Counted from the stretch's first letter, positions 1 through 12,542 are shown. The stretch is DNA of 12,542 nucleotides from a virus (IMGVR_UViG_3300020202_000060:1-12542), one strand, 5' to 3'. Translations and numbers: made by a program. The notes: generated by a model from the letters alone, not told the origin.

Positions 1-9
1 GATATAATT

Positions 10-54
10 AAACGAACCCTTTTTAAATGGGCATTAAAACGAACCCTTTTTAAA
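10..54 (+). repeat. Two copies of the 18-bp AAACGAACCCTTTTTAAA (10-27 and 37-54, 27-bp period), each with a T5 run; candidate tandem terminators or binding sites
   Basis: Exact direct repeat read from the sequence. It lies just downstream of the last gene of the terminase operon when the ends are joined. Oligo-T runs act as archaeal termination signals. Confidence 0.6.
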
Positions 55-73
55 CCCCCTCCTTCACTTGGAT

Positions 74-85
74 AAAATATAAATA
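74..85 (+). promoter_or_regulatory. TATA-like box AAAATATAAATA upstream of the portal operon
   Basis: A/T-rich TATA-like motif about 60 nt before the portal GTG start. The predicted transcript start would fall near the 106-124 hairpin. Confidence 0.35.
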
Positions 86-105
86 CGCTACTAGTTTCTT
101 AGCAT

Positions 106-124
106 CGCTTAAAGGTTTTAAGCG
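106..124 (+). promoter_or_regulatory. Perfect hairpin CGCTTAAA-GGT-TTTAAGCG in the portal 5' leader
   Basis: 8-bp perfect inverted repeat with a 3-nt loop, read directly, between the TATA-like box and the portal Shine-Dalgarno (SD) sequence. Confidence 0.5.
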
Positions 125-143
125 TAAACAAGAGGTTTCAAGC

Positions 144-1247
144 GTGGGAGAATACAATATAAGTAATACAACAGTAACGGATTTAAAAGGCACCATAAAA
201 GATTTCTCTATCGGAACAAGACAACTTGATAGTGTTAATGCATCAGGGGACACGTTTTATGACAATCCCGACTTCATAAAATATCTATCATATTATAAGA
301 GTATTCCAGAATTAAAGAAGTCTATTGATACATTTGCAACTTATGCAGTAGGTAGAGGTTTCACAGCCGATCCAAGTACAAAAGTTATTCTAGATCACGT
401 GACCGGAGCAGGCGAAGATACTTTTGACAGTATAATATGGAATCTAATCGTTATCAAAAAGATCAACGGAGATTCTTTTGCAGAAGTCATGAGAGAAGGA
501 GACAAGAAGGATGGAGTTATTTTGAACATCAAACCTCTTAACCCTGCCACTATAAGCGTAGTGTACGGATCAGACGGAAGAATCAAACATTATATCCAAC
601 GTAATGAAAAGAACGGGGATAAGAAGCTCGACAAGTGGAGAGTTCTACATCTAATTAATGATCGTATTGGAGATGAAATTCATGGTGTATCCGTGGTTGA
701 AGCCTGTAAATGGATAATTGATGCACGTAATGAAGCCATGAACGACTGGCGCAGAATCTCTCACAGGTCCACTATAAGGGTAATGTATATCGATTCAGAC
801 AATATTACGAAGATCAACCAAGTTAAAACCGAATACGCGGAAGCTATCAAGAAGGGTGAACTTCTTATTATCCCTGCAAAAAGAGGAGAAGCAGAATTTG
901 AAGATTTGCAACTCCCACCCGTTGATGCTTTTCTCTCCTGGATCCGCTACCTAGAGAACGCATTCTATCAAGCGGTAGGCGTTCCGAAGGTCGTCCTCGG
1001 CGGATCCGAGGAGTTTACAGAAGCCTCATCGAAAACTGCGTTAGTAACTTTCGATCAGCAATGGAAGAAAGAGCAGCGTGATCTAGAAGCCGATTTGTGG
1101 AATCAGTTAGCATTAAAGATAATATTGTACGAGCCAATAAGTCTAAAGAACGAGATGATTACAGATGAAAGCAAGAATACTGGACAATTAGGATTTCAAC
1201 CCAATGACGTTACGGCCAACAGCGGAGCCGATGGAGAAGGAGTATAA
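144..1247 (+). CDS. Portal protein (HK97-family-like)
   Basis: 367-aa ORF, GTG start with AGAGG 8 nt upstream. Motif pattern I associate with phage portals: INGDSFAEVMR, RVLHLINDRIGDEIHGVSVVEA, FLSWIRYLENAFYQAVGVPKVVLGG. It heads the head-morphogenesis operon. Confidence 0.8.
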   Translation: MGEYNISNTTVTDLKGTIKDFSIGTRQLDSVNASGDTFYDNPDFIKYLSYYKSIPELKKSIDTFATYAVGRGFTADPSTKVILDHVTGAGEDTFDSIIWNLIVIKKINGDSFAEVMREGDKKDGVILNIKPLNPATISVVYGSDGRIKHYIQRNEKNGDKKLDKWRVLHLINDRIGDEIHGVSVVEACKWIIDARNEAMNDWRRISHRSTIRVMYIDSDNITKINQVKTEYAEAIKKGELLIIPAKRGEAEFEDLQLPPVDAFLSWIRYLENAFYQAVGVPKVVLGGSEEFTEASSKTALVTFDQQWKKEQRDLEADLWNQLALKIILYEPISLKNEMITDESKNTGQLGFQPNDVTANSGADGEGV

Positions 1248-2260
1248 TGGCACCAACAAACTCAAGTAAGCCTAAGCCAAAACCAAAGCCGAAACCTGAA
1301 CCAGAATCAGAATCGCAATCAGAACCAAGACCTAGAAAGGTAGTTAGTATTGCAGGAGAAGAAGTTGATAGTGAACAGTTTATCGCAAGTAAACAACCTG
1401 CTAGAAACTTTTCAAGGCCAACCGGTACAGATCGAAGTCGTGCTGTTGAGATTACAAATTTATCAAGTGCAGAGAAAAGCAGAATATCCCAACAACATGG
1501 ACTGGAAGGAGTAGCAAGACGGGATATTGCATTAGAAAACCAAAAAGCTGAAATTCAAAATCAATTACAACAAGAACGTGCGAAAAGTCTCCAACCGATT
1601 ATTGGACAAGTTGCACAACCAATGCCTGAACAAACTATTATCCCCGGCTCCCCTGTTAATCCTTTAACTCCTGAACAAGCGAAAGAGTTAACCAATACTA
1701 CGCCACCACAACAAACACTTATCGGAAAAGATGAAGCCACAAGCTTGGCCCTTGGTGGAACAAGTATCGGAGCAGGCGCAGCTACTGGCGCAGGTCTTGG
1801 TGCCACAGCAGGTGCAGCTTTTGCTGGTGTTGGTGCTGTACCCGGAGCTATTATCGGGGGAGTTGCTGGCGGAGCAAGTGCAGGTCTTGCTAAAATCTCA
1901 TTTGAAAAAAGAGAGAACGTGGCAGTTGCAACTAAAAACTACAAGCTCGCACGTTCAAATATGAAAACCATAATCAATCAAGTCAATGCTGGAATGATGT
2001 CTCCTGAGGATGCCGTAGTAGCATGGAATGATCAGTTGAATACTATTAATATAGCACATAGAAATCTTAAGCTAGAGACTTCAACATCTCTTGCTCGATT
2101 CTTATCAGGTGGCCGTGTTGAACTAACAGAGATTCAAAACTTTAAAGACAATGAGGAGCTGTTTTTTACGAATAGGTTACAAGCTGCGCTATTAAGTCCT
2201 AATCCTAACTCAATATTTATGGATTTACAAGAAAATGAGGCGCCAAGCTATGACAGCTAA
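1247..2260 (+). CDS. Hypothetical virion protein with an N-terminal (KP)n/(SE)n repeat and a central glycine-zipper hydrophobic segment
   Basis: 337-aa ORF whose ATG overlaps the portal stop (TAATG), with AGGAG upstream. N-terminus is KPKPKPKPKPEPESESQSEPRP. Residues around 165-215 read GGTSIGAGAATGAGLGATAGAAFAGVGAVPGAIIGGVAGGASAGLA. Function not recognised. Confidence 0.7.
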   Translation: MAPTNSSKPKPKPKPKPEPESESQSEPRPRKVVSIAGEEVDSEQFIASKQPARNFSRPTGTDRSRAVEITNLSSAEKSRISQQHGLEGVARRDIALENQKAEIQNQLQQERAKSLQPIIGQVAQPMPEQTIIPGSPVNPLTPEQAKELTNTTPPQQTLIGKDEATSLALGGTSIGAGAATGAGLGATAGAAFAGVGAVPGAIIGGVAGGASAGLAKISFEKRENVAVATKNYKLARSNMKTIINQVNAGMMSPEDAVVAWNDQLNTINIAHRNLKLETSTSLARFLSGGRVELTEIQNFKDNEELFFTNRLQAALLSPNPNSIFMDLQENEAPSYDS

Positions 2261-2408
2261 AAGAACAGCTATTCCAAGCAACGACCAACGTATTTTATCA
2301 AATACCCAGTACAACTGCTCAGGTCCTTTAAGCCTAAGAAATTCAAGCTTTTCCTTTTCTTTTAAGCTCATAAATTTAACAATAAATCGAGGTTTAAAAA
2401 CCTTCTGA
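2250..2408 (+). CDS. Hypothetical 52-aa protein (not in the ORF track)
   Basis: Its ATG overlaps the end of the upstream ORF and its TGA overlaps the next ATG (TGATG), which suggests translational coupling. No recognisable motif; composition is unremarkable. Confidence 0.3.
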   Translation: MTAKRTAIPSNDQRILSNTQYNCSGPLSLRNSSFSFSFKLINLTINRGLKTF

Positions 2409-2554
2409 TGGACGCTGAGTGGATCACAGTTGGAGCCGGTGTTGGGTTCCCCGCTAGTCTCTGTGTTTACCTTCTAGTCCGTATGGAAAAAGCGATTAAT
2501 AAACTAACAGAAGCCGTTACGGTTTTGACGATTAAAATGAAAGGAGGGAATTAA
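2408..2554 (+). CDS. 48-aa single-pass membrane protein, YvrJ-like by eye
   Basis: MDAEWITVGAGVGFPASLCVYLLVRMEKAINKLTEAVTVLTIKMKGGN. The GFP...YLL.R.E.....L pattern recalls the roughly 50-aa YvrJ family. Stop/start coupled to its neighbours. Not in the ORF track because it is under 60 aa. Confidence 0.5.
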   Translation: MDAEWITVGAGVGFPASLCVYLLVRMEKAINKLTEAVTVLTIKMKGGN

Positions 2555-2555
2555 G

Positions 2556-2822
2556 ATGAGTGAACAAAAAGAAGACCTTGGAGCAGTTGATATTGGAGAT
2601 GGGAATAAGCCCTCGTCAACTCCGGTTATTGACTCCGCAAATCAAGCAGCAGAAAGGATGGAAAGAGCTGCCGCAGTCCTCAAAGCGGAAAACGACAGAC
2701 TTGAAATCTTGAGATCTGAAAAGATTCTAGGCGGAATGACCGATGCAGGACAGACAGTCAGTAAACCTGAAATGTCTCCACAGGAATACGCAAGAGCCAT
2801 TCTTGAAGGCAAGATAAAATGA
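2556..2822 (+). CDS. Small alpha-helical protein, possible scaffolding protein
   Basis: 88 aa with a strong AGGAGG 8 nt upstream. Has a coiled-coil-like stretch AAERMERAAAVLKAENDRLEILRSEK. The position between portal and capsid genes is typical of scaffolds. The function is inferred. Confidence 0.7.
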   Translation: MSEQKEDLGAVDIGDGNKPSSTPVIDSANQAAERMERAAAVLKAENDRLEILRSEKILGGMTDAGQTVSKPEMSPQEYARAILEGKIK

Positions 2823-3277
2823 CGCACCTAGTATTGTTAACAAGAGGAAATTTGGAGCATGTAGAGATCTTCATAAAAGAACTACATACGCGATACTTGC
2901 CAATGGACATATACAATCCAGTTACCAAGAAGATGGAGCGCAGATTACAACAGATGCGAGTGTGTCCAGTTCAATTATGGGATATATCATTCCCTGATGA
3001 ACATAAAGACGCTGTGCTAAACACCTGCTTAGCAGGAAATAGTGGGGCGCCAGTTGGAACACATTCAGTCAAGTACAAGCTTGGATTTGCAGCATTACAA
3101 AAAGCTCTGCGTCTAAGCCCTATTCCAGAATATAATAAAAAGGGTAAGTTGGCTATGCGTCCACCAGAACATATCGAGTTAATCGGTATTGGAACTAAGG
3201 ACGATTATTGGATTGAGCCTGATGGAAGCCATGTTTCAAAAGATAAGAAGAGTAAATTAGCAACTGAGGGTATATGA
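2819..3277 (+). CDS. Hypothetical protein (152 aa)
   Basis: ORF overlaps its neighbours by 4 nt at both ends (ATGA). No motif recognised. Confidence 0.65.
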   Translation: MTHLVLLTRGNLEHVEIFIKELHTRYLPMDIYNPVTKKMERRLQQMRVCPVQLWDISFPDEHKDAVLNTCLAGNSGAPVGTHSVKYKLGFAALQKALRLSPIPEYNKKGKLAMRPPEHIELIGIGTKDDYWIEPDGSHVSKDKKSKLATEGI

Positions 3278-3525
3278 CTGAGTGGGAAGATCTAAGCAAG
3301 TTCGAAAGGATAAAAAGAAAGTTTAGATCTTACTCTTTAGAAAAGACCCTGTTAATTCTCTTAACAATTTCATTTTTTTTATTTATTGGTTTTATTCTAG
3401 GTTTCCTAGTTGCATTTGAGTTCATGTGGAGCAAGTCCATTATACTTGCTGAAAAGTTTTTAGATGTCCAACTAAATGGTCAGGCAAAGGAACTAATGAA
3501 AGTTTACTTCTGGAAATTAACATGA
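3274..3525 (+). CDS. Small membrane protein (83 aa, one TM helix)
   Basis: Hydrophobic stretch TLLILLTISFFLFIGFILGFLVAFEFMW after a basic N-terminus. ATGA overlaps on both sides. Confidence 0.65.
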   Translation: MTEWEDLSKFERIKRKFRSYSLEKTLLILLTISFFLFIGFILGFLVAFEFMWSKSIILAEKFLDVQLNGQAKELMKVYFWKLT

Positions 3526-3815
3526 ACATTCCTACTTTTATGTGGCTTAAGAAGTATTTCGATACTGGATACGGTTTAATGAATTACCCTAGAGCATTGA
3601 TGATGGTCATAGGAGTTGGCGGTATTGCTAGAAACTGGAATTGGAAATTACTTATTATTATGGGCATAGCCTACGGTGTATTATGTTTTGTCTCAGGTTG
3701 GCTATACATACTTTTCAAGCTCCAAGATTATGAAAACGAGATTAACAATATCTTAAATCCATTCCAAAGAGAGGTTAGAAAGAAACTTGGCCAGAAGTCT
3801 AAGGTTGTGGGTTAG
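3522..3815 (+). CDS. Membrane protein (97 aa, two predicted TM helices)
   Basis: ALMMVIGVGGIARNW and LLIIMGIAYGVLCFVSGWLYILF segments followed by a charged C-terminal tail, a holin-like topology. The function is inferred only. Confidence 0.65.
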   Translation: MNIPTFMWLKKYFDTGYGLMNYPRALMMVIGVGGIARNWNWKLLIIMGIAYGVLCFVSGWLYILFKLQDYENEINNILNPFQREVRKKLGQKSKVVG

Positions 3816-3924
3816 AGTCGATAAAGAAGAGATCGAACGTATTCGGAGAAAGGCCAAAGAAATGAACATTTCTGTATCAGAGTATATCAGGATCATGTGC
3901 GGACACCGAATAAAAAGAAGATAG
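3805..3924 (+). CDS. Mini RHH (CopG/Arc-like) DNA-binding protein, about 39-45 aa (not in the ORF track)
   Basis: Translation (M)WVRVDKEEIERIRRKAKEMNISVSEYIRIMCGHRIKRR fits the strand-helix-helix pattern. Only TTG starts are available (3805 or 3787). It overlaps the end of the upstream ORF. Confidence 0.4.
   Translation: MWVRVDKEEIERIRRKAKEMNISVSEYIRIMCGHRIKRR
3909..3916 (+). promoter_or_regulatory. Weak TATA-like box AATAAAAA, 22 nt upstream of the ATG at 3938
   Basis: Same 22-nt box-to-ATG spacing as three stronger TATA boxes elsewhere in this genome. No SD precedes the 3938 ATG, consistent with a leaderless capsid-gene transcript. Confidence 0.35.
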
Positions 3925-3937
3925 TTTTATCTCCTGC

Positions 3938-4348
3938 ATGGCTAATGAAGCATCATTAAGAGTAAGAATTGAAGAACCTTTACCTTTTACCGTCGCTGAT
4001 GGAACTGGAATTGAAAAGGGAGCTACATTAAGATTAACTGATCCTAGAACTGCTGCTGCAAATACTGCTAACGGACAAATGGCCGCAGGTATTGCTGCAA
4101 GAGAAAAAGTTGCTTCTGATGGAAGAACTGAATTAGCAGTATACAGACGCGGATGGTTCGACATGAAATGTTCAGGAGCCGTTGTACTTGGTTCTAAATT
4201 AGTATTTGCAGGCGGAGATAATTGCGTAGTACAAGCTACATCAGCACATTCAGGAGCTGCTGTAATTGGAACTGCACTTGAAACTGGAGCAGATAACGAA
4301 GTCATTCTAGTAGACCTTAATATTGGTGGTGGAGGCGTAGGCGGATAA
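3938..4348 (+). CDS. DUF2190-like head decoration/cement protein (by eye)
   Basis: 136 aa, immediately upstream of and overlapping the capsid gene (TAATG). Gly/Ala-rich beta pattern: AAGIAAREKVASDGRTELAVYRRGWFDMK...GSKLVFAGGDN...AVIGTALETGADNEVILVDL. This resembles the small proteins that commonly precede HK97-type capsid genes. Confidence 0.6.
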   Translation: MANEASLRVRIEEPLPFTVADGTGIEKGATLRLTDPRTAAANTANGQMAAGIAAREKVASDGRTELAVYRRGWFDMKCSGAVVLGSKLVFAGGDNCVVQATSAHSGAAVIGTALETGADNEVILVDLNIGGGGVGG

Positions 4349-5211
4349 TGGCAGATCAAGTTGAAATGCAGGATATCAGAGGCCTTGACATTGATAAGGC
4401 AGTTAAAGGTTTCGCATTAACAGAGTATATCTTCAAGAATGCTGTAACAGTTGTTAACACAAGCGCAGATCATATAAGATGGTATCAAGAAACTGCTGCT
4501 GATCTAACTGCAACAGCTCCAATGAGAGTTGCAAACAAAGCTACCTTAGCATTACCTACTGAACTTGAAGTAAGTTGGACAAGAAATACTTCTTATGTTA
4601 AAGAGTACATGGCACAGGGAACTATATCCGAGATGGATATAAAGTCTGCTGACATTGACGTACTTGCTAGAACTCTATTAAGATTAACTAGAGCAGTAGT
4701 TAAACAAGTTGATACAGACATCTACAACGTAGCATCAGAATCTCAAACAGCAGTTAACATTAACTCTGTAACATCCAATGCAGCATGGGATGCAGCATCT
4801 GGACAAGATCCAATAGAAGACATATTGGAAGCTATGCAGAAGATTGAAGAAGCAGATTATGAAACTTCAGGATTAGAAATTTGGTTATCACCTAAAGATA
4901 AGAAGTCACTATTGACTTGGTTGATCTCAACAAAGGGAGCAAGTATACCACAATTTGCATCTGAGAAAGTTGAGAATGGAGTATTAATGACATTCCTAGG
5001 AGCTAAAGTTAGAGTATCTCCAAACGTAGTTGCAGATTCAGCTCTAGTATTAAATCCTAAGAAAGCAGTTACTTACAGACAATTTACTGATACAACCTCA
5101 AAGATAATTGAGAATCCTGGATTGAATAAAATGATTAGAGTATGGGCAAGAGGAATCGCCACTCTAACTGATCCAAAAGCAGTTACTATCATCACTAATA
5201 CTCAGACATAA
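4348..5211 (+). CDS. Major capsid protein, HK97-fold type
   Basis: 287 aa with GGAGG upstream. The C-terminal pattern LEIWLSPKDKKSLL...FLGAKVRVSPNVVADSALVLNPKKAVTY...MIRVWARGIATLTDPKAVTIITN is typical of HK97-like capsid proteins, and the genomic context fits. Confidence 0.75.
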   Translation: MADQVEMQDIRGLDIDKAVKGFALTEYIFKNAVTVVNTSADHIRWYQETAADLTATAPMRVANKATLALPTELEVSWTRNTSYVKEYMAQGTISEMDIKSADIDVLARTLLRLTRAVVKQVDTDIYNVASESQTAVNINSVTSNAAWDAASGQDPIEDILEAMQKIEEADYETSGLEIWLSPKDKKSLLTWLISTKGASIPQFASEKVENGVLMTFLGAKVRVSPNVVADSALVLNPKKAVTYRQFTDTTSKIIENPGLNKMIRVWARGIATLTDPKAVTIITNTQT

Positions 5212-5215
5212 TTCT

Positions 5216-5356
5216 ATGGCATTAGGCACAGTAGTTGATGGGACGGGCACTGTTGGAACAAGATTTTTAGATAAAGATTATCCTAATACTGAAGGTCTTG
5301 TTGCAGGTACTACTATAACTGGTGAAGATCCAACACTTGAGGAGTTAGGAATCTAA
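5216..5356 (+). CDS. Hypothetical 46-aa protein (not in the ORF track)
   Basis: MALGTVVDGTGTVGTRFLDKDYPNTEGLVAGTTITGEDPTLEELGI. It starts 5 nt after the capsid stop and its stop overlaps the fibre ATG (TAATG). Confidence 0.4.
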   Translation: MALGTVVDGTGTVGTRFLDKDYPNTEGLVAGTTITGEDPTLEELGI

Positions 5357-6689: not shown

Positions 6690-6698
6690 GAGTATGAT

Positions 6699-6806
6699 GC
6701 CGGGTCGTTGAAAAGCGGGAATGGATTAAACCCGTCCCATGCACGTTGCCCGGCTTAGCATGAGTATGACAGGGCGTCACTGGTTTTTAGCCAGATATAG
6801 CCCTAC
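6699..6806. ncRNA. GC-rich structured intergenic element: two nested hairpins, either a candidate structured leader or a small RNA
   Basis: GCCGGG(T) 6699-6705 pairs with (G)CCCGGC 6748-6754 and encloses GCGGG 6715-6719 / CCCGT 6731-6735. AGGGC 6771-6775 pairs with GCCCT 6800-6804 and encloses CTGG 6780-6783 / CCAG 6791-6794. The element is visibly more GC-rich than its flanks. Strand and function are unresolved. Confidence 0.4.
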
Positions 6807-6859
6807 TTTTGTTGTTGAAGGGTACAAAACCATTACCCCAAGATAATAATCGATTTTAA

Positions 6860-6884
6860 TCAGTAGGAAATCGTTCCCTACTGA
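6860..6884 (-). terminator. Stem-loop immediately after the stop of the 124-aa ORF
   Basis: TCAGTAGG (6860-6867) and CCTACTGA (6877-6884) form a perfect 8-bp stem with a 9-nt loop. On the minus strand an A/T-rich stretch TTAAAATCGATTATTATC follows. Confidence 0.45.
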
Positions 6885-7259
6885 TCAGCTTTTACTGGTT
6901 ACTGGCCAAAAGTCAGTAACATAGAGAACATCCTTTAGTCCAGAGCCTATTTTCTGCTTTAGGATATTACCCCAGTAGAACTTCTGTCCTACCCAGTTAT
7001 CCATTTCAGTATTACCTAACTTCTGCAAACAGAGTGTTGTCATTCTGTTAGCACTTGTCTTATTAGGATAGTAAATGCCTTGTGCCTCATTACTAAGCTT
7101 GATCAGTACAGCAAGTTTCTTGTTTTTCTCCCCACTTGGGTCCTGCTGTGTAGGATAAGCCTCGTATCTTGGTTTATCTATAACTTCAAAATGCCTCTCA
7201 CTTTCTGGCATGCTTACTATAAGCTCACCTGTGATAGCTAAGTTTTGTGATTGTACCAT
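6885..7259 (-). CDS. Hypothetical protein (124 aa); weak resemblance to OB-fold ssDNA-binding-like phage proteins
   Basis: Strong GGAGGTG upstream, and its ATG overlaps the upstream stop. The pattern KLAVLIKLSN...LGNTEMDNWVGQKFYWGNIL...VLYV loosely recalls DUF669-type proteins. Not verifiable here. Confidence 0.6.
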   Translation of the reverse strand: MVQSQNLAITGELIVSMPESERHFEVIDKPRYEAYPTQQDPSGEKNKKLAVLIKLSNEAQGIYYPNKTSANRMTTLCLQKLGNTEMDNWVGQKFYWGNILKQKIGSGLKDVLYVTDFWPVTSKS

Positions 7260-7459
7260 TATTTTGCACCTCCTTCTAATTGTGATGATTTTTGGGAAAC
7301 CTCTATTTTTCTACATTTTGCGCAATACCATAATAATCTGCTGGAATTAGGCGGTGTAGCCAATTCTATAATATTAGCCCAATCATGCTCACATTTCTTT
7401 TTCATTCTCTCTTTTATATCAAGCTTTATCATTTTACGAATTTTAACACCGCCTTGCAC
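7259..7459 (-). CDS. Small zinc-ribbon-like protein
   Basis: CEHDW...(21 aa)...CAKC gives a C-x-H / C-x-x-C metal-binding pair. The track start is GTG; an internal ATG (MIKLDIKERM...) may be the true start. Confidence 0.5.
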   Translation of the reverse strand: MQGGVKIRKMIKLDIKERMKKKCEHDWANIIELATPPNSSRLLWYCAKCRKIEVSQKSSQLEGGAK

Positions 7460-7558
7460 ATTCTTCTCTCTTTTTTTCCAGTATAAGGTAACTTCAACAG
7501 CTTCTTTGCTATTGATCTGACATAAGCAATCTCATACTTTTGTCTGCTAATGCGTTTT

Positions 7559-7786
7559 CTATCTTGTTTCATCGTCTTCTACACCCCCGACTACTCGCTC
7601 CATATTACCTACAACCTCAACAAGTCTTGTAACATGAAATCGTCCTGTCTGTCTCTGGTACTCGTCTATTGCATCAGATAGTCTAGTAGTGCGATATACT
7701 GGCAGCTCTCTCCTATCATCTTTCCAAGCTAAAGGAACGGGCATATACCTGCCATCTCTTTGCACTTGAACTTCGTATTCTTTCAT
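7559..7786 (-). CDS. Hypothetical protein (75 aa)
   Basis: AGGAG upstream, and its ATG overlaps the stop of the upstream 45-aa ORF (ATGA). Confidence 0.6.
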   Translation of the reverse strand: MKEYEVQVQRDGRYMPVPLAWKDDRRELPVYRTTRLSDAIDEYQRQTGRFHVTRLVEVVGNMERVVGGVEDDETR

Positions 7787-7920
7787 CTTAATGCTCCTAA
7801 GAAAGATAGTGTCAATGCTAAAGACGCAATTGTCAATACCAACATGTTAATAAGAAGAAAAAGAGTACCAAGATCAAGATCAGGATCATACATGTATTCT
7901 CGTATATGCCAATCCGTCAT
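7783..7920 (-). CDS. 45-aa single-pass membrane protein (not in the ORF track)
   Basis: MTDWHIREYMYDPDLDLGTLFLLINMLVLTIASLALTLSFLGALR. GGGGG sits 7 nt upstream of the ATG, and its stop overlaps the next ATG. Confidence 0.5.
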   Translation of the reverse strand: MTDWHIREYMYDPDLDLGTLFLLINMLVLTIASLALTLSFLGALR

Positions 7921-7952
7921 AGTAAACCCCCATTAGAAGAATAGAAGGAAAA

Positions 7953-7993
7953 CGCCCGAACCGGGAATCGGACCCGGGTCTCCTGCGCGACAG
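7953..7993 (-). other. 3' half of a tRNA-Asp(GUC) gene (anticodon loop to discriminator); candidate attP core
   Basis: The minus strand reads CTGTCGC (loop, anticodon GTC, T33, G37, C38) - GCAGG - AGAC (4-nt variable) - CCGGG TCCGATT CCCGG (T arm) - TTCGGGC - G73. The five bases 5' of the loop (GCCCC) do not pair with GCAGG, so the tRNA similarity stops at the anticodon loop. There is no 5' half and no CCA. Confidence 0.6.
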
Positions 7994-7999
7994 GGGGCA

Positions 8000-8161
8000 T
8001 CATAGATATCTCCCCGGAGCAAGCTTGCCCTTTTTGATTAGTCTTTCAACAATACACTTTGCTATCTCTTTTCTTGAACTATTATCTTCATCTCTTGCTA
8101 ATAGTTTCAAAGCTTTATTGACTTTTATTGGTATAGCAGTCTCCACCCTTACTTTTTTCAT
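8000..8161 (-). CDS. RHH (CopG/Arc/MetJ-like) transcription regulator, 53 aa (not in the ORF track)
   Basis: MKKVRVETAIPIKVNKALKLLARDEDNSSRKEIAKCIVERLIKKGKLAPGRYL shows a clear beta-strand/helix/helix pattern. It is divergent from the integrase, and a TATA box lies 22 nt upstream of its ATG. Confidence 0.7.
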   Translation of the reverse strand: MKKVRVETAIPIKVNKALKLLARDEDNSSRKEIAKCIVERLIKKGKLAPGRYL

Positions 8162-8182
8162 GTCACATTTAACAAAGTGATC

Positions 8183-8190
8183 TATTTAAA
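8183..8190 (-). promoter_or_regulatory. TATA box TTTAAATA (minus strand) for the RHH/leftward operon; leaderless geometry
   Basis: The 3' edge of the box is 22 nt from the ATG at 8161, and no SD lies between them. Confidence 0.55.
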
Positions 8191-8224
8191 TGTTGTGGTG
8201 ATCTACCGGTATGTTACCGTAACC

Positions 8225-8232
8225 TTTATATA
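8225..8232 (+). promoter_or_regulatory. TATA box TTTATATA for the integrase; leaderless geometry
   Basis: The 3' edge of the box is 22 nt from the ATG at 8254, and no SD lies between them. Confidence 0.55.
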
Positions 8233-8253
8233 GTCTCCCTCTAGTGAATTATT

Positions 8254-8901
8254 ATGAGTAAGAAAGCCAAGATTGAGAAAAGGCATCTAACTGCTCAAGA
8301 TATCGACGATATATGCAGGACTATACGCACAAGTCGCAGATATTTACCTAACAGAGCAGGAGAGTTTATGAGAGCAAGAGATCAGACAATAATTAAGTTA
8401 TGCAGTCTCTGTGCTCTACGCCCTAGTGAAGCATTGATGTTAAAATGGTCTGATATTGATTTTGATAATAAGCTGATTAATATAGAAGCAGGAACTAATA
8501 AAGAGAATCAGGGCAATAACGCCTTGCTTATTCCTCAAGCATTAGAGATATTATATGAGTATAAACAAGTCTATGATCAATATTTAGCAGCCGAGTTCTT
8601 ATTCCCCTCATTAGTTAGTTTCGAGCCATTAACATTATCTGCATTTGATAAGATATTTCTAAAGATTCAGAAAGAAGCAGGATTGTATAAGGTCCTATGG
8701 TATACTTCAGCAGGTCAACCAATATCATCACACACACCATATGATTTGAGAAAGCACGCTGGTACTAGGTTTTATAGGCATACAAGAGATCCATACAAGA
8801 CAATGAGATTCTTAAGACAAAAGAAGATGACTTCAATAATACCTTATTTACATAGTGAGATCACAGATATTTACACAGACGCAGCACTTGCTTTCTCTTA
8901 A
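8254..8901 (+). CDS. int: Tyrosine recombinase / integrase (short, 215 aa)
   Basis: Box I-like ALRPSEALMLKWSDIDF (Arg). Box II-like HTPYDLRKHAGTRFY (..LR.H). C-terminal IIPYLH supplies the candidate catalytic Tyr. It lies next to a tRNA-fragment attP candidate. Confidence 0.8.
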   Translation: MSKKAKIEKRHLTAQDIDDICRTIRTSRRYLPNRAGEFMRARDQTIIKLCSLCALRPSEALMLKWSDIDFDNKLINIEAGTNKENQGNNALLIPQALEILYEYKQVYDQYLAAEFLFPSLVSFEPLTLSAFDKIFLKIQKEAGLYKVLWYTSAGQPISSHTPYDLRKHAGTRFYRHTRDPYKTMRFLRQKKMTSIIPYLHSEITDIYTDAALAFS

Positions 8902-8934
8902 TGTGTGTGTGCGTGTGTGTGTGCGTGTGTGTGT
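8901..8934. repeat. 34-nt perfectly alternating purine-pyrimidine tract, (GT)n interrupted by two GC
   Basis: ATGTGTGTGTGCGTGTGTGTGTGCGTGTGTGTGT begins at the last base of the integrase stop codon. Confidence 0.9.
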
Positions 8935-9018
8935 CACATTTTTCCCCCCTAAGAACCCCCCTTTCCATGGGAAATATAAGCACCTTGTGCTATACCTATA
9001 TTTCCTATAGAACCTTAA

Positions 9019-9038
9019 CTTACCTACCCTTACCTACC
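9019..9038. repeat. Tandem 10-bp repeat CTTACCTACC x2 within a C-rich, G-poor stretch
   Basis: Read directly. Confidence 0.85.
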
Positions 9039-9054
9039 TTGTCTTACTACACTA

Positions 9055-9072
9055 ACACACACATACACACAC
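9055..9072. repeat. 18-nt alternating tract ACACACACATACACACAC, an imperfect inverted partner of the 8901-8934 (GT) tract
   Basis: Its reverse complement is GT-rich, and the two tracts bracket about 120 bp. Confidence 0.85.
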
Positions 9073-9211
9073 TCACTTGATCGGAGTTCAGATATTTACG
9101 TACACCTATGCAGTCCTTGCCTGCTAATGGGTTTTGTGTATATCACCGCTTCGTTCGCTTCGCTCACTCCGCTAACGTCCCCCCCCGTCGTAGCTTGAAA
9201 AGCTCGTATAG

Positions 9212-9238
9212 CTAAGTTAATACCTTGTATTAACTTAG
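9212..9238. repeat. Perfect 11-bp inverted repeat CTAAGTTAATA-ccttg-TATTAACTTAG
   Basis: Arms at 9212-9222 and 9228-9238 are exact reverse complements. Candidate operator or hairpin. Confidence 0.85.
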
Positions 9239-9426
9239 GATAGTAGCGTTCAACGTACGTACGTAGTGTAGTTAGCATAGTAATCTAAAGAACGAAGCCG
9301 TAAGGCTGAGTTAGTTAGTAGTAATAGCATAGTACGTATGTAGTGCAACACGTCAACGTGGGGCAATATAACGTCATTTAGAGCGATAGTTGAAGCGTTT
9401 GTACTTTTCTTGGGTTATCTCAGCAG

Positions 9427-9474
9427 AAAAATTTTTATTATTTTTTATTTTTAAAAAAAAGAAAAAAATATATA
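9427..9474 (+). promoter_or_regulatory. 48-nt block that is A/T apart from one G, ending in the TATA box AAATATATA (9466-9474)
   Basis: The box 3' edge is 22 nt from the ATG at 9496. The block could also act as a DNA-unwinding element. Confidence 0.55.
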
Positions 9475-9684
9475 GTGTATCATCTTTACTACCCTATGAG
9501 CTTAAGCGATAAGATTGAAATTTCCCTTTCAGATTCCTATAATAATCGACTAAAGGTTGAAGATGTTAAAGAAGCTGTAAATGAATTGAAAGAGAAAGTT
9601 AGTTTATTTGAAAACCTCAACGGTGGACAAATGGTTCTAAGATGGATAGACGAAATATTCGGAGATAAACTAAGTGGAAGTTGA
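9475..9684 (+). CDS. Small acidic hypothetical protein; true start probably the ATG at 9496 (62 aa)
   Basis: The track start at 9475 is a GTG inside the promoter. MSLSDKIEISL... begins at 9496 in leaderless geometry. It is the first gene of the terminase operon; a small-terminase role is only a positional guess. Confidence 0.6.
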   Translation: MYHLYYPMSLSDKIEISLSDSYNNRLKVEDVKEAVNELKEKVSLFENLNGGQMVLRWIDEIFGDKLSGS

Positions 9685-9859
9685 AGATTTAGGTATTAAG
9701 GTAGTCTCTAAGGATGAAGCCTTATGGACAGAAGTTAAGGAAGCAGCAGAGAAAGAACTAGAATCTATTGAAGATAACTATTTCAGAACAAAGACATTCC
9801 AAACAGCAATTAGGGAACTATGTATAAACAAACTTGCAGAGATTAGTAATGATAAGTGA
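9674..9859 (+). CDS. Small acidic helical hypothetical protein (61 aa)
   Basis: GTG start overlapping the upstream ORF, followed by a double stop TGATGA. No motif recognised. Confidence 0.5.
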   Translation: MEVEDLGIKVVSKDEALWTEVKEAAEKELESIEDNYFRTKTFQTAIRELCINKLAEISNDK

Positions 9860-9945
9860 TGACGAACATAGACAGACAATGCATTGTTTAGAAGTAGCAT
9901 TAAGACAAATTAATAGTGAAGTTAGTTGGATAAGGCAGTTACTAG

Positions 9946-11298
9946 TTGATTTCTTGGAGAAGAATGATAGTCCTAGATGATTGGCAAAAAGAAGTTTTGA
10001 GTTATGATAAAGATCTTCTATTGTGCACTGGCCGTAGAGTTGGTAAGACGTACATACTAGCGAGAAAGGCGTGCGAAGAGATGGTGAATAAACCCAATAC
10101 GCCAGTCATTGTTGTATCATTAACCGAAGATCAAGCGCAACTGATTATTTCTATGGCTCTTAATTACTTACAAGATCATTACCCGAAGATGATTGCAAAG
10201 GGGCAGAACAAACCAACACAGAAAACCATCACACTAACAAACAAGTCGAAGATGATATCGCGCCCTGTTGGAAATACTGGAGATGGAGCGAGAGGATTTG
10301 AAGGAGGAATCTTGATAGTGGATGAGGCTTCCAGAATGCCCCGTTCGTTTTGGATTGCTGGAAAGCCTGTACTGCTAACGACAAACGGACGCATATGGAT
10401 GGCATCAACACCGTTTGGAAAGCAGGGTTACTTCTGGGAGAGATTCGACGAAGCATATAACAAGAAGAGTCCTAGTGCGAGATTCAAAGTATTCTATATA
10501 TCAACAGAGGAAGTAATGAAGAACAGACCAATAAGTGATAGTTGGACGGAGGAACAGAGAGAGGGAGCATTGAGAATACTTGATGAAGATCGAAAGGAGA
10601 TGTCGGAGATCGAATACGGACAAGAGTATCTCGGATTGTTCCTAGACGAGTTAAGACAGTTCTTCCCTGATGAATTAATTGACAAGTGTTGTATACTACA
10701 GAGAAACCCTAATATGACGGGTGATAAGTTCTTAGGGGTTGACATTGCGAGAATGGGAGATGATGAGAGTACGTTTGAAGTTATTAACAAGCTAGATGGG
10801 AAATACTATCATGTAGAATCGCAGATAACAAAGAAGACATATACAACGCAGACAGAGCAGAAGATCATAGAGCTTGATAAGATGTGGAACTTTGTTAAGA
10901 TTGGAATTGACGCGGGGTCTGGATCGCTAGGAGTTGGCATATACGATCATCTGTTACAATCAAACATTAAGAGAAAAATTGAAGCTATGAACAACAGAGC
11001 AATAGCACAGGACAGAGATGGAAAGAAGAAAGTGACTTTACAGAAAGAAGATTACTATGATAACTTACGAGGTATGATGGAACGTGGAGAGATCAAGCTA
11101 TTAGATGATGATAATGTCAAGGCCAGTCTTAGATCTGTACAGTGGGAGTTTACTAATACAGAGGAAGATGTGCAAGAAGGAAAGATCTCTAAAGTGAGGA
11201 TATTTGGTAAGTATACCCACGTAGCCGAAGGTATAATCAGAGCTGCATGGCTTGCGAGAAAAGCGAAGAATTTAAATTTCCAGATATATTACGTATAA
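9946..11298 (+). CDS. terL: Terminase large subunit
   Basis: Walker A-like CTGRRVGKTY, Walker B ILIVDEAS, coupling motif MASTP, and nuclease-domain acidic motifs GVDIARMGDDESTF and IGIDAGSGS. The track start is TTG; the ATG at 9964 (MIVLDDWQKEVL) with GGAGA upstream is more likely. Confidence 0.85.
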   Translation: MISWRRMIVLDDWQKEVLSYDKDLLLCTGRRVGKTYILARKACEEMVNKPNTPVIVVSLTEDQAQLIISMALNYLQDHYPKMIAKGQNKPTQKTITLTNKSKMISRPVGNTGDGARGFEGGILIVDEASRMPRSFWIAGKPVLLTTNGRIWMASTPFGKQGYFWERFDEAYNKKSPSARFKVFYISTEEVMKNRPISDSWTEEQREGALRILDEDRKEMSEIEYGQEYLGLFLDELRQFFPDELIDKCCILQRNPNMTGDKFLGVDIARMGDDESTFEVINKLDGKYYHVESQITKKTYTTQTEQKIIELDKMWNFVKIGIDAGSGSLGVGIYDHLLQSNIKRKIEAMNNRAIAQDRDGKKKVTLQKEDYYDNLRGMMERGEIKLLDDDNVKASLRSVQWEFTNTEEDVQEGKISKVRIFGKYTHVAEGIIRAAWLARKAKNLNFQIYYV

Positions 11299-11299
11299 G

Positions 11300-11452
11300 A
11301 TGCCAGATAAGGTAACAATAGGAAATATTACTATAAGTCGTTCACTAACTTCAAACGGTGATGTAGTAGTATCGGAAGATAAATTTGCAGAAATCGTTGC
11401 ATTGGAAAAATTACGCGAGGAAATAATTAAACTACATCTAGGGGCCAAATGA
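11300..11452 (+). CDS. Hypothetical 50-aa protein (not in the ORF track)
   Basis: MPDKVTIGNITISRSLTSNGDVVVSEDKFAEIVALEKLREEIIKLHLGAK. It starts 2 nt after the terL stop, and its stop overlaps the next ATG (ATGA). Confidence 0.45.
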   Translation: MPDKVTIGNITISRSLTSNGDVVVSEDKFAEIVALEKLREEIIKLHLGAK

Positions 11453-11811
11453 GCTGGACGTTGTGCACAAGCGGAGCAGCAATAATTAAAGCAGGTACTG
11501 GTGCAAGTACAACTATTGTAGGATCGGGTGCTGCATTGGCTGAAATGAGCGACGAGGTAGAAGCATTTATTTGTGATGCACTAAGAGTTGACGTTGTAAC
11601 TAATTACGGATCGCTAACTAGTAATGGTAAGAAACTCCTTGGAAGATTAGCAGCATCTATGATTGCACAGGACATGGTAGATTATGATACAACTGGTTAC
11701 AATAGCGCAAGAGAGGCAGAACTAAAACTTGACAAACTAGAAAACGATATTTCCAAAGCTCTGAAGTTATTGGAAGATGATAAAGTTAAAGCATACTTGC
11801 AGGCGACTTAA
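11449..11811 (+). CDS. Hypothetical virion protein (120 aa), possible head-completion/adaptor protein by position
   Basis: Tightly coupled ORF between terminase and portal, with a helical C-terminus (REAELKLDKLENDISKALKLLEDDKVKAYL). The function is inferred from position only. Confidence 0.6.
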   Translation: MSWTLCTSGAAIIKAGTGASTTIVGSGAALAEMSDEVEAFICDALRVDVVTNYGSLTSNGKKLLGRLAASMIAQDMVDYDTTGYNSAREAELKLDKLENDISKALKLLEDDKVKAYLQAT

Positions 11812-12422
11812 TGGCACTCCAAACAAAGTTTAGGCGATCACCTGAAAAGGCCATAGCCTCTTATTCTTATTTTGATATTGCAGAAGGTAGCGGCTTAATT
11901 GAGTTTCTCCCATTTCTAACAACTAGTGATGGCAGTAATCTAAGCGGAGCCATGACAATTAATACAAGTGTATATGGTGCAAGTTCAGGGGCAGCAAACT
12001 TAACAGCAACTAACAAAGACTTTGATGTAGTTTTCAACTTACCTAAGATTATAGAGGGAAATGCATTTTGTATAACTCCGATAAGGATCCAAGGAACCGG
12101 AAACGGCAAGGTTTATGCAACTATTAAACACGTGGATTTAAACGGAGTTGAAACAACAATCGGAGCACAAGCTACATCCGAATCTGTGATTGGTGGCGGT
12201 GGCGGTGTTAGTGCTGATAAAAAAGTAATCACAAAGTTCACGATTGCAAGAAAGAAATTTAAGAAAGGAGAGAAGTTAAGACTTAATCTTTCAGGAGCTT
12301 CAAGCGGAAGTGTGGAGAAAGCAGATATTGGACTATCACCAGTTAATACTCAATTATCGACGGTATTTGCAACTAATGGGAGCAGATCAAGCCTATTTAT
12401 CCCATTCAGAAACGAGATATAA
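11811..12422 (+). CDS. Hypothetical beta-rich virion protein (203 aa)
   Basis: TAATG overlap with the upstream ORF. Ser/Thr/Gly/Asn-rich beta-type composition with a GGGGG linker. It ends inside the terminal repeat and is followed by the T5-containing tandem repeats. Confidence 0.6.
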   Translation: MALQTKFRRSPEKAIASYSYFDIAEGSGLIEFLPFLTTSDGSNLSGAMTINTSVYGASSGAANLTATNKDFDVVFNLPKIIEGNAFCITPIRIQGTGNGKVYATIKHVDLNGVETTIGAQATSESVIGGGGGVSADKKVITKFTIARKKFKKGEKLRLNLSGASSGSVEKADIGLSPVNTQLSTVFATNGSRSSLFIPFRNEI

Positions 12423-12542
12423 TTAAACGAACCCTTTTTAAATGGGCATTAAAACGAACCCTTTTTAAACCCCCTCCTTCACTTGGATAAAATATAAATA
12501 CGCTACTAGTTTCTTAGCATCGCTTAAAGGTTTTAAGCGTAA
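12416..12542. repeat. Terminal direct repeat, right copy (identical to 1-127)
   Basis: Same 127-nt string as 1-127. The stop codon of the 203-aa ORF (12420-12422) lies inside it. Confidence 0.95.

Follow-up and report, generated by a model that had tools for sequence, protein, structure and literature searches.

The window analysed in this study is a stretch of viral DNA of 12,542 nt in which packaging, head and integration genes are found together. It raises the question of whether a unit of this size can be a complete virus genome and, if so, what kind of particle it builds and which host it infects. We consider it probable that the window holds a complete 12,415-bp genome, and that the virus is temperate and belongs to a large family, as yet uncultured, of miniature archaeal viruses of the head-tailed type with capsid, portal and terminase.

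Genome unit and family

The genome unit is a 12,415-bp circle. Bases 1–127 of the window equal 12416–12542 exactly, which marks the circular closure of the assembly. An independent ENA/MEGAHIT assembly (L089) contained the identical 12,415-bp circle with 0 mismatches, another breakpoint and a 141-bp overlap. The shifted breakpoint and the 141-bp overlap indicate that the 127-bp repeat is an assembler k-mer overlap and not a physical terminal repeat. The source molecule is circular or circularly permuted. An 18-nt direct repeat (AAACGAACCCTTTTTAAA) lies inside the assembly overlap at 10–27 and 37–54.

The sequence-only reading had described a miniature head-tailed-type genome near the lower size limit for tailed viruses, and both points were borne out. 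The closed circle encodes capsid protein, portal, terminase and an integration module, and, as the complete genome of a very small virus with capsid and portal, it lies at the lower end of the size range of tailed viruses. Salmonella phage astrithr, among the smallest isolated tailed phages, and the satellite P4 both have genomes of 11.6 kb (bioRxiv 10.1101/2025.06.18.659913). They fall in the same size class as the 12.4 kb found here, and some family members (10.2–11.6 kb) are at or below 11.6 kb. In contrast to astrithr and P4, with which capsid and portal share no sequence similarity, the present genome belongs to a large environmental family and not to a single isolate, and its likely host is archaeal and not bacterial.

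The genome is not an isolated oddity. The capsid protein had at least 618 homologous clusters, and the longest contigs were almost all 11–12.9 kb. Approximately 195–200 IMG/VR contigs encoded relatives with a shared gene order, none of them longer than 12.9 kb except one tandem 1.8-mer. Ten relatives were circularly closed, at 10,199–12,117 bp. The conserved order is terL, 120-aa protein, 203-aa protein, portal, 337-aa protein, 88-aa protein, 152-aa protein, cement, capsid, 46-aa protein and fibre. The suggestion of an undescribed lineage also held: close identity to a known virus was looked for, and no close relative was found among 50,697 deposited phage/virus records, in which megablast, capsid tblastn and portal tblastn gave no match at all. 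A search for a deposited phage or a paper describing this virus family likewise found none. This large family, with genomes of 10.2–12.4 kb, is apparently undescribed.

Small circularly closed environmental contigs encoding HK97 proteins, with overlapping sizes, are also the subject of the "twilight-zone" genomes of Aguilar et al. The dominant group of that survey, from the human gut, has 8.9-kb genomes whose capsid proteins are encapsulin-like and which lack genes for portal, terminase and tail (bioRxiv 10.1101/2025.06.18.659913). The family described here adds portal, terminase and fibres.

Packaging, head and integration genes

The packaging and head set claimed earlier (terL, portal, capsid, decoration-like protein and fibre) was recovered by Pfam and PHROG profiles, the cement-like protein below the cutoff and the fibre through its relatives. 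The portal protein (144–1247, plus strand, 367 aa) matched phrog_12 (5e-15) and phrog_9232 (4e-12), and PF04860 was precomputed on an identical protein. Its gene uses GTG as start codon, preceded by a Shine-Dalgarno-like AAGAGGT at 131–137 and a TATA-like AAAATATAAATA at 74–85. A portal homologue was present in 80 of the 88 related loci. The large terminase (9946–11298, plus strand) has ATPase and RNaseH-like nuclease domains and matched Terminase_6N (1.6e-7), phrog_2 (2.5e-36), TerL_ATPase, a T7-type RNaseH-like domain and PDB chain 4zni (3.5e-4). Two small proteins are encoded 5′ of terL (9496–9859, plus strand), one of 62 aa, with its ATG at 9496, and one of 61 aa. The latter is conserved in 67 loci, and its position makes it a candidate small terminase or DNA-recognition subunit.

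The major capsid protein (4348–5211, plus strand, 287 aa) matched PF25209 with 28.6 bits (cutoff 27) and four major-head-protein PHROGs, the best being phrog_1650 (2e-17); a HK97-type fold is predicted from these profiles. The cement/decoration-like protein (3938–4348, plus strand, 136 aa) scored 22.3 bits with PF09956, just below the cutoff of 24. It occurred in 86/88 loci, and its homologue in a related contig (L006) carries PF09956. The 88-aa helical protein (2556–2822, plus strand), encoded between the portal and capsid genes, is a candidate scaffolding protein with a weak DUF7307 match. No small gene is more widely conserved: iterated HMM found it in 83/84 loci. Between the scaffold and capsid genes lies a conserved 152-aa protein (2819–3277, plus strand) with the motifs MH.., FPKE and GIRED and a HEAL-like C-terminal end; it had no Pfam or PDB match. 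Pfam and PHROG searches found no capsid maturation protease among the proteins of the window or of the family members. The genome carries the portal, large terminase and predicted HK97-fold capsid protein of Duplodnaviria and Caudoviricetes, and the protease of these groups was not found. By the known Duplodnaviria pathway, the large terminase would fill a small HK97-type capsid with DNA by way of the portal. The 287-aa capsid protein would assemble on the 88-aa scaffold and be stabilised by the 136-aa cement protein. By analogy with other 11–16 kb genomes (P4, C1), T=3 or T=4 is the probable capsid geometry.

Integration appears to be served by a compact module. The tyrosine integrase (8254–8901, plus strand, 215 aa) consists of the catalytic domain only and matched PF00589 (1e-17, residues 14–201) and phrog_216 (7.5e-22). 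Its best NCBIfam match was the archaeal XerA, at 46 bits and below the cutoff. Divergent from it is the leaderless gene of RHH53 (8000–8161, minus strand), a 53-aa putative Arc/RHH-type regulator. A second ribbon-helix-helix protein, the 45-aa RHH45 (3787–3924, plus strand), is MobA/RelB-like and matched NikA-like (1.1e-8) and RHH_1 (7.9e-6) profiles above the cutoff. Of the two RHH regulators proposed earlier, RHH45 is therefore well matched, but RHH53 showed only a weak Arc-like match (phrog_2639, E 0.012).

The candidate attP (7949–7994, minus strand) is a 3′ fragment of tRNA-Asp(GTC), 6 nt beyond the regulator gene. It comprises 42 nt (7994 to 7953), from the anticodon loop CTGTCGC through the discriminator G, followed by TTTT. 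The segment from 7994 to 7949 matched a tRNA-Asp(GTC) gene (72 nt, Rfam 60.7 bits) of a groundwater contig (L090) at 45 of 46 nt, the sole mismatch being in the T-loop. The fragment reported earlier was thus confirmed; its archaeal/eukaryal-type label, however, does not follow from the fragment alone and draws its support from the match on a contig with archaeal-style promoters. Neither ARAGORN nor Rfam found a tRNA gene within the window. A recombinase catalytic domain and an attP matching the 3′ part of a tRNA, as in tRNA-targeting integrases, are both present, and it is therefore predicted that the genome can integrate in the host tRNA-Asp gene. Lysogeny would depend on the integrase, the divergent small regulator and this attP. 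GTDB representatives, IMG/VR and a metagenome scan yielded no integrated copy (attL/attR) of a family member. Among approximately 125 related contigs, the module of integrase, RHH protein and attP was unique to this genome, and for the family in general a temperate lifestyle is not obvious. A small archaeal integrated element of similar gene content, compared by description only, is JAGTQZ010000009_pro. This 10,101-bp provirus in a Bathyarchaeia MAG encodes a capsid protein, a protein annotated as "tape measure", several RHH antitoxin-like genes and an integrase; it was reported without packaging genes and is regarded as defective (PMC11705971).

Profile searches recognised no replication gene in the window or in approximately 125 relatives, so replication is presumably host-dependent. 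Host machinery may act on the 569-bp non-coding region at 8902–9470, which contains inverted arms of (TG)n/(CA)n, three copies of TAGCATAGTA, two of GTACGTAYGTAGTG, a perfect palindrome of 12 nt (9212–9238) and an A/T tract (9430–9470). This region is a candidate origin and/or packaging site. The lack of a recognisable replication gene fits a helper-dependent element equally well.

Capsid-forming phage-inducible chromosomal islands of bacteria are tail-stealing satellites of approximately 10–15 kb with a complete head and packaging set and no recognisable tail genes. The present genome resembles them in size, in its head set without recognisable tail genes and in its integrase. It could be a satellite that makes its own small capsid and packages itself, while borrowing a tail, and perhaps replication, from a larger virus that serves as its helper in the same archaeon. 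Tube, sheath, baseplate, nozzle and replication genes were unrecognisable in the window and approximately 125 relatives, the integrase and attP are present, and 10–12.4 kb matches satellites such as P4 (bioRxiv 10.1101/2025.06.18.659913). However, an integrase throughout the family and chromosomal residence, which would mark a satellite, were not observed: the integrase occurred in this genome only, and the other loci assemble as free circles, ten of them closed. The family also has a diverse set of fibres and receptor-binding proteins of its own, with lectin and tail-collar domains, for which an element that steals its tail would have no use. Such islands typically have a primase/Rep module or a helper-sensing regulator, neither of which was found, and they are bacterial whereas the host here appears to be archaeal. 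We consider a satellite unlikely.

Candidate proteins of the portal vertex

The absence of a recognisable tape measure, tube, sheath or baseplate, pointed out by the sequence-only reading, was confirmed: in the window, profile searches detected no family of tape-measure or adaptor proteins, and families of tube, sheath, baseplate and nozzle proteins were found neither there nor in approximately 125 relatives. The fibre/receptor-binding candidate (5356–6207, plus strand, 283 aa) has a conserved N-terminal anchor (approximately residues 1–70) and a variable, beta-rich C-terminus. Conservation was limited to the N-terminal 40–70 aa; longer relatives matched "tail fiber protein" PHROGs, and a tail Collar domain was found in fibre relatives. 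The preceding conserved 46-aa protein (5216–5356, plus strand) corresponds to a module with which, in relatives, large lectin-domain proteins begin.

The 120-aa helical protein (11449–11811, plus strand) was present in 58 loci and adjoins the portal gene. It had no Pfam, PHROG or PDB match, and its position and size make it a candidate head-tail adaptor. The 203-aa protein (11811–12422, plus strand) was modelled by AlphaFold2 from a 96-sequence alignment as a TNF/C1q-like jelly roll with pLDDT 90.6, and its family comprises 1,636 representative clusters. In Foldseek the model resembled fibre knobs and TNF/C1q trimers with moderate TM-scores (0.5–0.59), the fold being a common one. On the basis of this model, the protein may form a trimeric tail knob, a plug or a spike that binds the receptor. 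The structural modelling proposed earlier was thus productive for this protein, but the single-sequence model of the fibre had low confidence (pLDDT 41).

The 337-aa protein (1247–2260, plus strand) is basic and of low complexity at its N-terminus, Gly-rich and hydrophobic (glycine-zipper) in the middle and helical at its C-terminus. Residues 160–215 matched phrog_1047 and phrog_16692, and relatives matched tape-measure PHROGs and the tape-measure chain 9ki1_g (E 0.01). The Gly-rich hydrophobic segment of this family is also present in tape-measure and ejection proteins, and the protein is a candidate internal/ejection or tape-measure-like protein. Roles for the 120-, 152-, 203- and 337-aa proteins are proposed from position and fold only.

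The sequence-only reading had left the particle as either tailless or short-tailed. Its observation that tail families are missing stands. The fibre-type proteins and the helical 120-aa and jelly-roll 203-aa proteins around the portal gene favour a minimal short tail, which we infer at the portal vertex. A tailless icosahedral virus would instead have a portal vertex with a plug and fibres only and would deliver its DNA independently of a tail. This would agree with the missing tail families, with a 203-aa jelly roll serving as a simple plug or spike, and with a recent survey in which most HK97 genomes of similar size lacked tail genes. We hold it to be quite improbable, since the fibre proteins of relatives match tail-fibre families and the conserved 120-aa and 203-aa genes lie between terL and portal, a place typical of connector or tail parts. 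Moreover, no prokaryotic virus with a portal and a terminase is known to lack a tail. In the favoured short-tailed particle, the 120-aa adaptor and the 203-aa trimeric knob or plug would close the portal. Fibres may be anchored through the conserved N-terminal modules of the 46-aa and 283-aa proteins. The 337-aa glycine-zipper protein would be packaged and then ejected, aiding the passage of DNA across the envelope.

Promoters and host

Archaeal promoters have a TATA box approximately 26 nt upstream of the start site. Across approximately 85 related contigs, TTTA[AT]A started exactly at −29 from ATG 114 times, compared with approximately 3.5 times per other position, an enrichment of approximately 33-fold over background. 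As controls, the low-GC bacterial phage phiCD211 showed no −29 peak and the archaeal virus SIRV2 showed a sharp peak at −43. In the window, TATA boxes were located at −29 of the ATG of the integrase, RHH53 and 50-aa genes and at −27 of the ATG at 9496. This −29 peak and these four cases agree, in motif position, with the leaderless TATA promoters proposed earlier. Transcription would start from archaeal TATA promoters, many of them leaderless, with the first codon 29 nt after the start of the box. The divergent promoter region at 8162–8253 has boxes at 8183–8190 (minus strand, TTTAAATA, for RHH53) and 8225–8232 (plus strand), both beginning at −29 of their respective ATGs. GTGATC repeats at 8178–8183 and 8198–8203 flank the first box, and the inverted repeat GTTACCGTAAC at 8214–8224 abuts the second; these repeats may act as operators.

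The Hjc-type resolvase claimed earlier corresponds to a Hjc-like PD-(D/E)XK nuclease (6208–6486, minus strand, 92 aa from ATG). Its family profile matched Pyrococcus Hjc (1GEF, 7e-5) and also Sulfolobus Hjc; the structure matches were to archaeal Hjc only, and PF01870 was matched in 4/12 relatives. The catalytic core of Hjc is PD-(D/E)XK with E, D and E-x-K. In the present family, E, D and Q-x-K are conserved, with Q in place of the third acidic residue throughout. One relative carries an ERCC4-domain gene. The best deposited-virus match of terL was the haloarchaeal Halogranum tailed virus 1, with 25% identity at 96% coverage (1e-23); Methanobacterium virus PhiF1 came next. With these two archaeal Caudoviricetes the genome has in common the HK97-type capsid protein, portal, large terminase and archaeal promoters. 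They are 74–144 kb in size versus 12.4 kb here, where sheath, tube, tape measure, baseplate and replication genes are unrecognisable.

Taken together, the −29 TATA boxes, the Hjc profile, the XerA and ERCC4 affinities and the haloarchaeal terL match strongly suggest an archaeal virus, and the host is almost certainly an archaeon. An ultra-small archaeon would be a guess. Contig L090, which carries the matching tRNA gene, is a 45-kb contig from a 0.1-μm groundwater fraction that also holds ultra-small bacteria, and it could itself be a mobile element; its TATA boxes lie 27–29 nt upstream of ATGs and, in the case of the tRNA gene, 31 nt upstream. The MAG search suggested earlier gave two GTDB matches, both virus-sized contigs, but no provirus, and the bins were split between one bacterial (an 11.5-kb relative in a Melioribacteraceae MAG) and one archaeal. 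The genome could also be that of a small bacteriophage with coincidental archaeal features, whose host might be an ultra-small bacterium of the candidate phyla radiation or a member of Bacteroidota/Ignavibacteriota. This would suit the Melioribacteraceae bin, the 0.1-μm source of the tRNA contig and the frequency of RHH proteins and tyrosine integrases in phages. It is very improbable, because the binning of a virus-sized contig with a MAG carries little weight, the bacterial control lacks the sharp −29 peak with leaderless starts that the tRNA contig shows, and the Hjc, XerA, ERCC4 and terL affinities point to archaea.

Several small genes complete the genome. The leaderless 50-aa protein (11300–11452, plus strand) has TTTAAA at −29. 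A 48-aa hydrophobic protein (2408–2554, plus strand) occurred in 19 related loci, and its L006 homologue carries PF12841 YvrJ. Two small membrane proteins of 83 and 97 aa (3274–3815, plus strand), recognised from their hydrophobic sequences, are candidates for egress or superinfection functions; the 97-aa protein occurred in 7 loci. The small accessory ORF block (6441–7920, minus strand; 82, 124, 66, 47, 75 and 45 aa) is nearly all unique to this genome, and the 124-aa protein has a single relative, in the related contig L113.

Genome unit and gene content

The first 127 bases of the window were identical to its last 127. The independent ENA/MEGAHIT assembly of the same genome (L089) showed a 141-bp overlap at another breakpoint and gave a 12,415-bp unit with 0 mismatches to the window. 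The overlaps in the window genome and its relatives (127, 123, 114, and 141 bp) are assembler k-mer sizes, which, together with the closure of L089, indicates that the "terminal repeat" marks a circular or circularly permuted molecule and no physical end.

The coding density of the window was approximately 88%. The structural block on the plus strand starts with terL (9946–11298), a 50-aa gene, a 120-aa gene, and a 203-aa gene (11811–12422). It continues past the junction with the portal (144–1247), the 337-, 48-, 88-, and 152-aa genes, two membrane proteins, and the 45-aa ribbon-helix-helix (RHH) protein, and ends with the cement (3938–4348), the capsid (4348–5211), the 46-aa gene, and the 283-aa fibre (5356–6207). 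The minus-strand block (6208–8161) contains an Hjc-like nuclease, six small ORFs, and a 53-aa regulator, from which the plus-strand integrase (8254–8901) diverges. A repeat-rich, non-coding stretch of 569 bp lies 3′ of the integrase, and a pac site is predicted in its vicinity (8902–9470). Directly past the integrase stop codon, imperfect (TG)n and (CA)n runs (8902–8934 and 9049–9076) form inverted arms 120 nt apart. The sole Rfam match in the window, mir-466, reached 25.9 bits, below its gathering score of 85, and was rejected as an artefact of the TG/CA repeats. An 18-nt direct repeat, AAACGAACCCTTTTTAAA, is located at 10–27 and 37–54 and again at 12425–12442 and 12452–12469, in the interval that separates the 203-aa gene from the portal promoter. 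The TATA-like TTTTTAAA is present in each copy, and the repeat may be a regulatory site or a terminator.

The annotations of terL, portal, capsid, integrase, and the 45-aa RHH protein were backed by Pfam and PHROGs. With the same circle in two assemblies, the miniature HK97-portal-terminase genome proposed in the sequence-only reading is real. The cement call was slightly below the Pfam cutoff in the window genome and was made on a relative. Two RHH regulators had been proposed; the 45-aa protein was upheld by Pfam, and support for the 53-aa regulator was weak. Compared with the PDB, the family profile of the minus-strand nuclease gave meaningful matches to archaeal Hjc only (1GEF, 7e-5; 4TKK, 1HH1, and ST1444), and the Pfam Hjc model matched 4 of 12 relatives. 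These comparisons support its annotation as a putative Hjc-type resolvase. The third catalytic acidic residue is a glutamine across the family. The integrase had no word-sharing homologue among 5.8 billion indexed proteins.

Protease, polymerase, primase, helicase, and Rep families were not detected in the window or in approximately 270 proteins of relatives. The 152-aa family (window 2819–3277; alignment A10) matched nothing in Pfam, PHROGs, or the PDB. Encoded between the scaffold and the capsid, it is placed where a novel maturation protease would fit. Near-invariant motifs in this family are an N-terminal MH, FPKE, P.GIRED, and HE-A/G-L at the extreme C-terminus.

Relatives and comparison with known viruses

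The capsid protein had at least 618 homologous clusters at 90% identity, and the longest contigs were concentrated at 11–12.9 kb. Two pattern scans of IMG/VR each confirmed approximately 195 relatives, all on contigs of at most 12.9 kb except L088 (21.4 kb). It consists of 1.8 tandem copies of one 11.8-kb unit (60–277 against 11891–12108); the copies are 98.6% identical, which fits a concatemer or circular read-through. The 35-kb ENA contig L003 (54–8234) shares 99.9% identity over 8.2 kb with the 11.5-kb relative L004 (1–8181). The two diverge inside the fibre gene, after which L003 encodes a 1,090-aa protein with a lectin domain and carries unrelated genes. L003 is probably an assembly chimera or a receptor-module swap with a larger virus. 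Neither long contig was accepted as a genuinely larger relative. The 10 circularly closed relatives ranged from 10,199 to 12,117 bp (median 11.8 kb).

Gene order was conserved across the family. Iterated profiles over approximately 84 loci, most of them partial, detected the 88-aa protein most often, at 83 loci, followed by the 61-aa protein encoded 5′ of terL (67 loci), the 46-aa protein (61), the fibre anchor (61), and the 120-, 203-, and 152-aa proteins (58, 55, and 34, respectively). The remainder of each genome is a variable block of 2.5–4 kb with small ORFs and occasional cargo: methylases, SNase, HNH, glycosyltransferase, an ERCC4 nuclease, CcdA-like RHH, and lectin-domain proteins. The integrase, both RHH genes, and nearly all minus-strand ORFs of the window had no counterpart among approximately 125 related loci, so the window genome is the temperate exception in this sample. 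The complete 10.2-kb relative L046 carries a tRNA-Met(CAT) gene (7836–7910), the only one in the family genomes scanned.

No likeness to deposited phages or viruses was found at the DNA, capsid, or portal level. Close identity to a classified phage would have spoken against an undescribed lineage, and none was found. A literature search returned catalogues and related topics only, with no description of the family, and the family is absent from recent papers on nanohaloarchaea viruses, groundwater DPANN viruses, and archaeal proviruses. The proposal of an apparently undescribed lineage is thus supported, and most of the interpretation made from the sequence was right. The element fits best within the known realm of capsid-portal-terminase viruses, of which it is a new and unusually reduced form.

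To our knowledge, all isolated or classified archaeal tailed viruses have genomes of roughly at least 20 kb. An archaeal family of 10.2–12.4 kb, if true, would lower this floor by about half. Such a family, which encodes complete head and packaging functions and fibres of its own and has no recognisable genes for a tail shaft or for replication, would be a natural minimal system for studying tail requirements. We tentatively propose a broader reading, which we consider possible and somewhat doubtful: a globally distributed lineage of family or higher rank, comprising the smallest known autonomous portal-bearing viruses, with ultra-small or uncultured archaeal hosts, a tail of about three proteins, and no replication genes of its own. 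If true, it would define the minimal gene set of a tailed virus at approximately 10 kb and provide the first widespread virus group for ultra-small or otherwise uncultured archaea.

Isolated tailed genomes go down to 11.6 kb (Salmonella phage astrithr and satellite P4), and most HK97 contigs below 11.6 kb lack portal, terminase, and tail genes (bioRxiv 10.1101/2025.06.18.659913). The present family straddles this survey threshold yet retains portal, terminase, and fibres. A 10,101-bp provirus in a Bathyarchaeia MAG (JAGTQZ010000009, 159913–170013) was called defective and has genes for a capsid, a 'tape measure', three RHH antitoxin-like proteins, and an integrase (PMC11705971). Judged by description only, its content is like the automatic-pipeline annotation expected for the family, and it may be analogous.

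Particle and tail

The sequence-only reading had found no recognisable tape measure, tube, sheath, or baseplate genes, and the profile searches agreed: none was detected in the window or in approximately 270 core and non-core proteins of relatives, nor were nozzle or adaptor families. The structural and profile matches of several virion candidates favour a minimal short tail; a satellite that borrows its tail and a portal virus truly without one are possible but less likely readings.

The model of the 203-aa protein (96-sequence alignment) was a confident jelly roll (pLDDT 90.6, pTM 0.83). Its structural neighbours, with TM-scores of approximately 0.5–0.59, were the C-terminal jelly roll of CocE-type hydrolases, TNF/C1q-like trimers, and knob domains inside phage tail-fibre proteins. 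The 203-aa family is very large (1,636 clusters at 50% identity). Two apparent homologues, P0135 and P0150 (1,825 and 3,346 aa), owed their high scores to 17–23 repeated T/S/A/G-rich units and appear to be low-complexity, compositional false positives. Family profiles of the 120-, 152-, and 203-aa proteins gave nothing meaningful against PDB sequences.

The first 40–70 residues of the fibre were conserved and the remainder was variable. Longer fibre relatives matched tail-fibre PHROGs, Laminin_G_3, and tail Collar domains. Single-sequence AlphaFold gave no usable model of the 283-aa fibre (pLDDT 41). The 46-aa protein (5216–5356) recurs as the N-terminal module of large proteins (L003 10263–13535, and in the relatives L028, L043, L052, and L012), some with Laminin_G_3. 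This arrangement suggests that the module may be a second virion anchor for exchangeable distal domains. The 337-aa family had only a glycine-zipper hydrophobic segment in common with tape-measure and tail-lysin families. The 203-aa fold, the fibre, 46-aa, and 337-aa matches, and gene position together favour the minimal short tail, which would consist of an adaptor, a knob or plug, fibres, and an ejected membrane-active protein.

Promoters, host domain, and putative attachment site

Upstream regions of the family aligned on the start codon showed T-T-T-A-A-A-(T)-A at −29 to −22, preceded by an A-rich stretch. TTTA[AT]A started at exactly −29 in 114 genes, against approximately 3.5 per other position. 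Judged from the sequence, the spacing is that of an archaeal TATA box preceding a leaderless mRNA. The same script gave no promoter peak in phiCD211, a low-GC bacterial phage, and a sharp peak at −43 in SIRV2, an archaeal virus with short leaders. In the window, the box is at −29 for the integrase, the 53-aa regulator, and the 50-aa gene, and the ATG at 9496 has TATATA at −27. The internal genes (portal, 88-, 124-, and 337-aa) have Shine-Dalgarno-like sequences in place of the box. Such a sharp positional signal is a simple, reusable way of assigning uncultured viruses to archaea.

The best curated family for the integrase was archaeal XerA, with a score under the cutoff, and the ERCC4 gene of one relative is a further archaeal pointer. 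Among 50,697 deposited viruses, the best match of terL was Halogranum tailed virus 1 (HGTV-1; 25% identity, 96% coverage, 1e-23), and Methanobacterium virus PhiF1 was also in the match list. With the −29 peak and the Hjc profile, these affinities bear out the archaeal hallmarks first noted in the sequence, and the virus almost certainly infects archaea. A GTDB scan returned two virus-sized contigs in MAG bins only, L007 (CAZXJG010000104.1) and L008 (CBDVEE010000043.1), from representative MAGs of Melioribacteraceae and an 'uncultured archaeon', respectively. Since these contigs (11.5 kb and 5.3 kb) fall in opposite domains, are virus-sized or smaller, and have no evident host flanks, at least one is a binning artefact, and neither is proof of the host.

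On the minus strand, 6 bases past the stop codon of the 53-aa regulator, the window carries CCTGTCGCGCAGGAGACCCGGGTCCGATTCCCGGTTCGGGCG followed by TTTT (7994→7949). It comprises an anticodon loop (anticodon GTC), the 3′ anticodon stem, a 4-nt variable loop, the T-arm, the 3′ acceptor strand, and a discriminator G. The bases 5′ of it are unpaired, marking a tRNA fragment as expected for attP. ARAGORN and Rfam detected no tRNA in the window; the fragment was found by reading the sequence and confirmed by exact-pattern scan. The scan of a metagenome collection returned a single contig, ERZ1292629.434 of 45,087 bp, from Hainich groundwater well H43 (0.1-μm fraction), and that of IMG/VR returned no match. 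Around the pattern, the contig (locus L090) has a complete 72-nt tRNA-Asp(GTC) gene at 5082–5153 (ARAGORN; Rfam 60.7 bits). The fragment matches it at 45 of 46 nt, the lone difference being in the T-loop.

The groundwater contig resembles the virus in its G+C content of 38%. Its tRNA gene is preceded at 31 nt by a TTTAAAA box, and several of its ATGs at 27–29 nt by TATA boxes. A second fragment copy, degenerate and inverted (8429–8472), lies beside a 384-aa XerA-like integrase, which suggests that the tRNA-Asp gene is a mobile-element hot spot. On the opposite side are DNA methylases and a pilin-like gene for conjugation; the whole contig may itself be a mobile element. Neighbouring genes gave weak Bud32-like and XerA-like matches in Pfam and NCBIfam, all below cutoffs. 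Extension through a neighbouring protein reached only a 4.6-kb Logan contig, whose genes (MFS transporter, acetyltransferase, and HTH protein) are uninformative for lineage. Ultra-small DPANN archaea are abundant and heavily virus-linked at the Hainich site (bioRxiv 10.1101/2025.05.30.656956); as a pointer to a DPANN host, the association with H43 groundwater is circumstantial only.

A temperate member with a tRNA-Asp attachment site, if true, would be a concrete starting point for tracing the host and for recovering an inducible provirus. At 8178–8224, the TATA box of the 53-aa regulator gene is flanked by GTGATC repeats, and the inverted repeat GTTACCGTAAC in this region adjoins the integrase TATA box. 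By their placement, these repeats look like candidate operators of a lysogeny switch.
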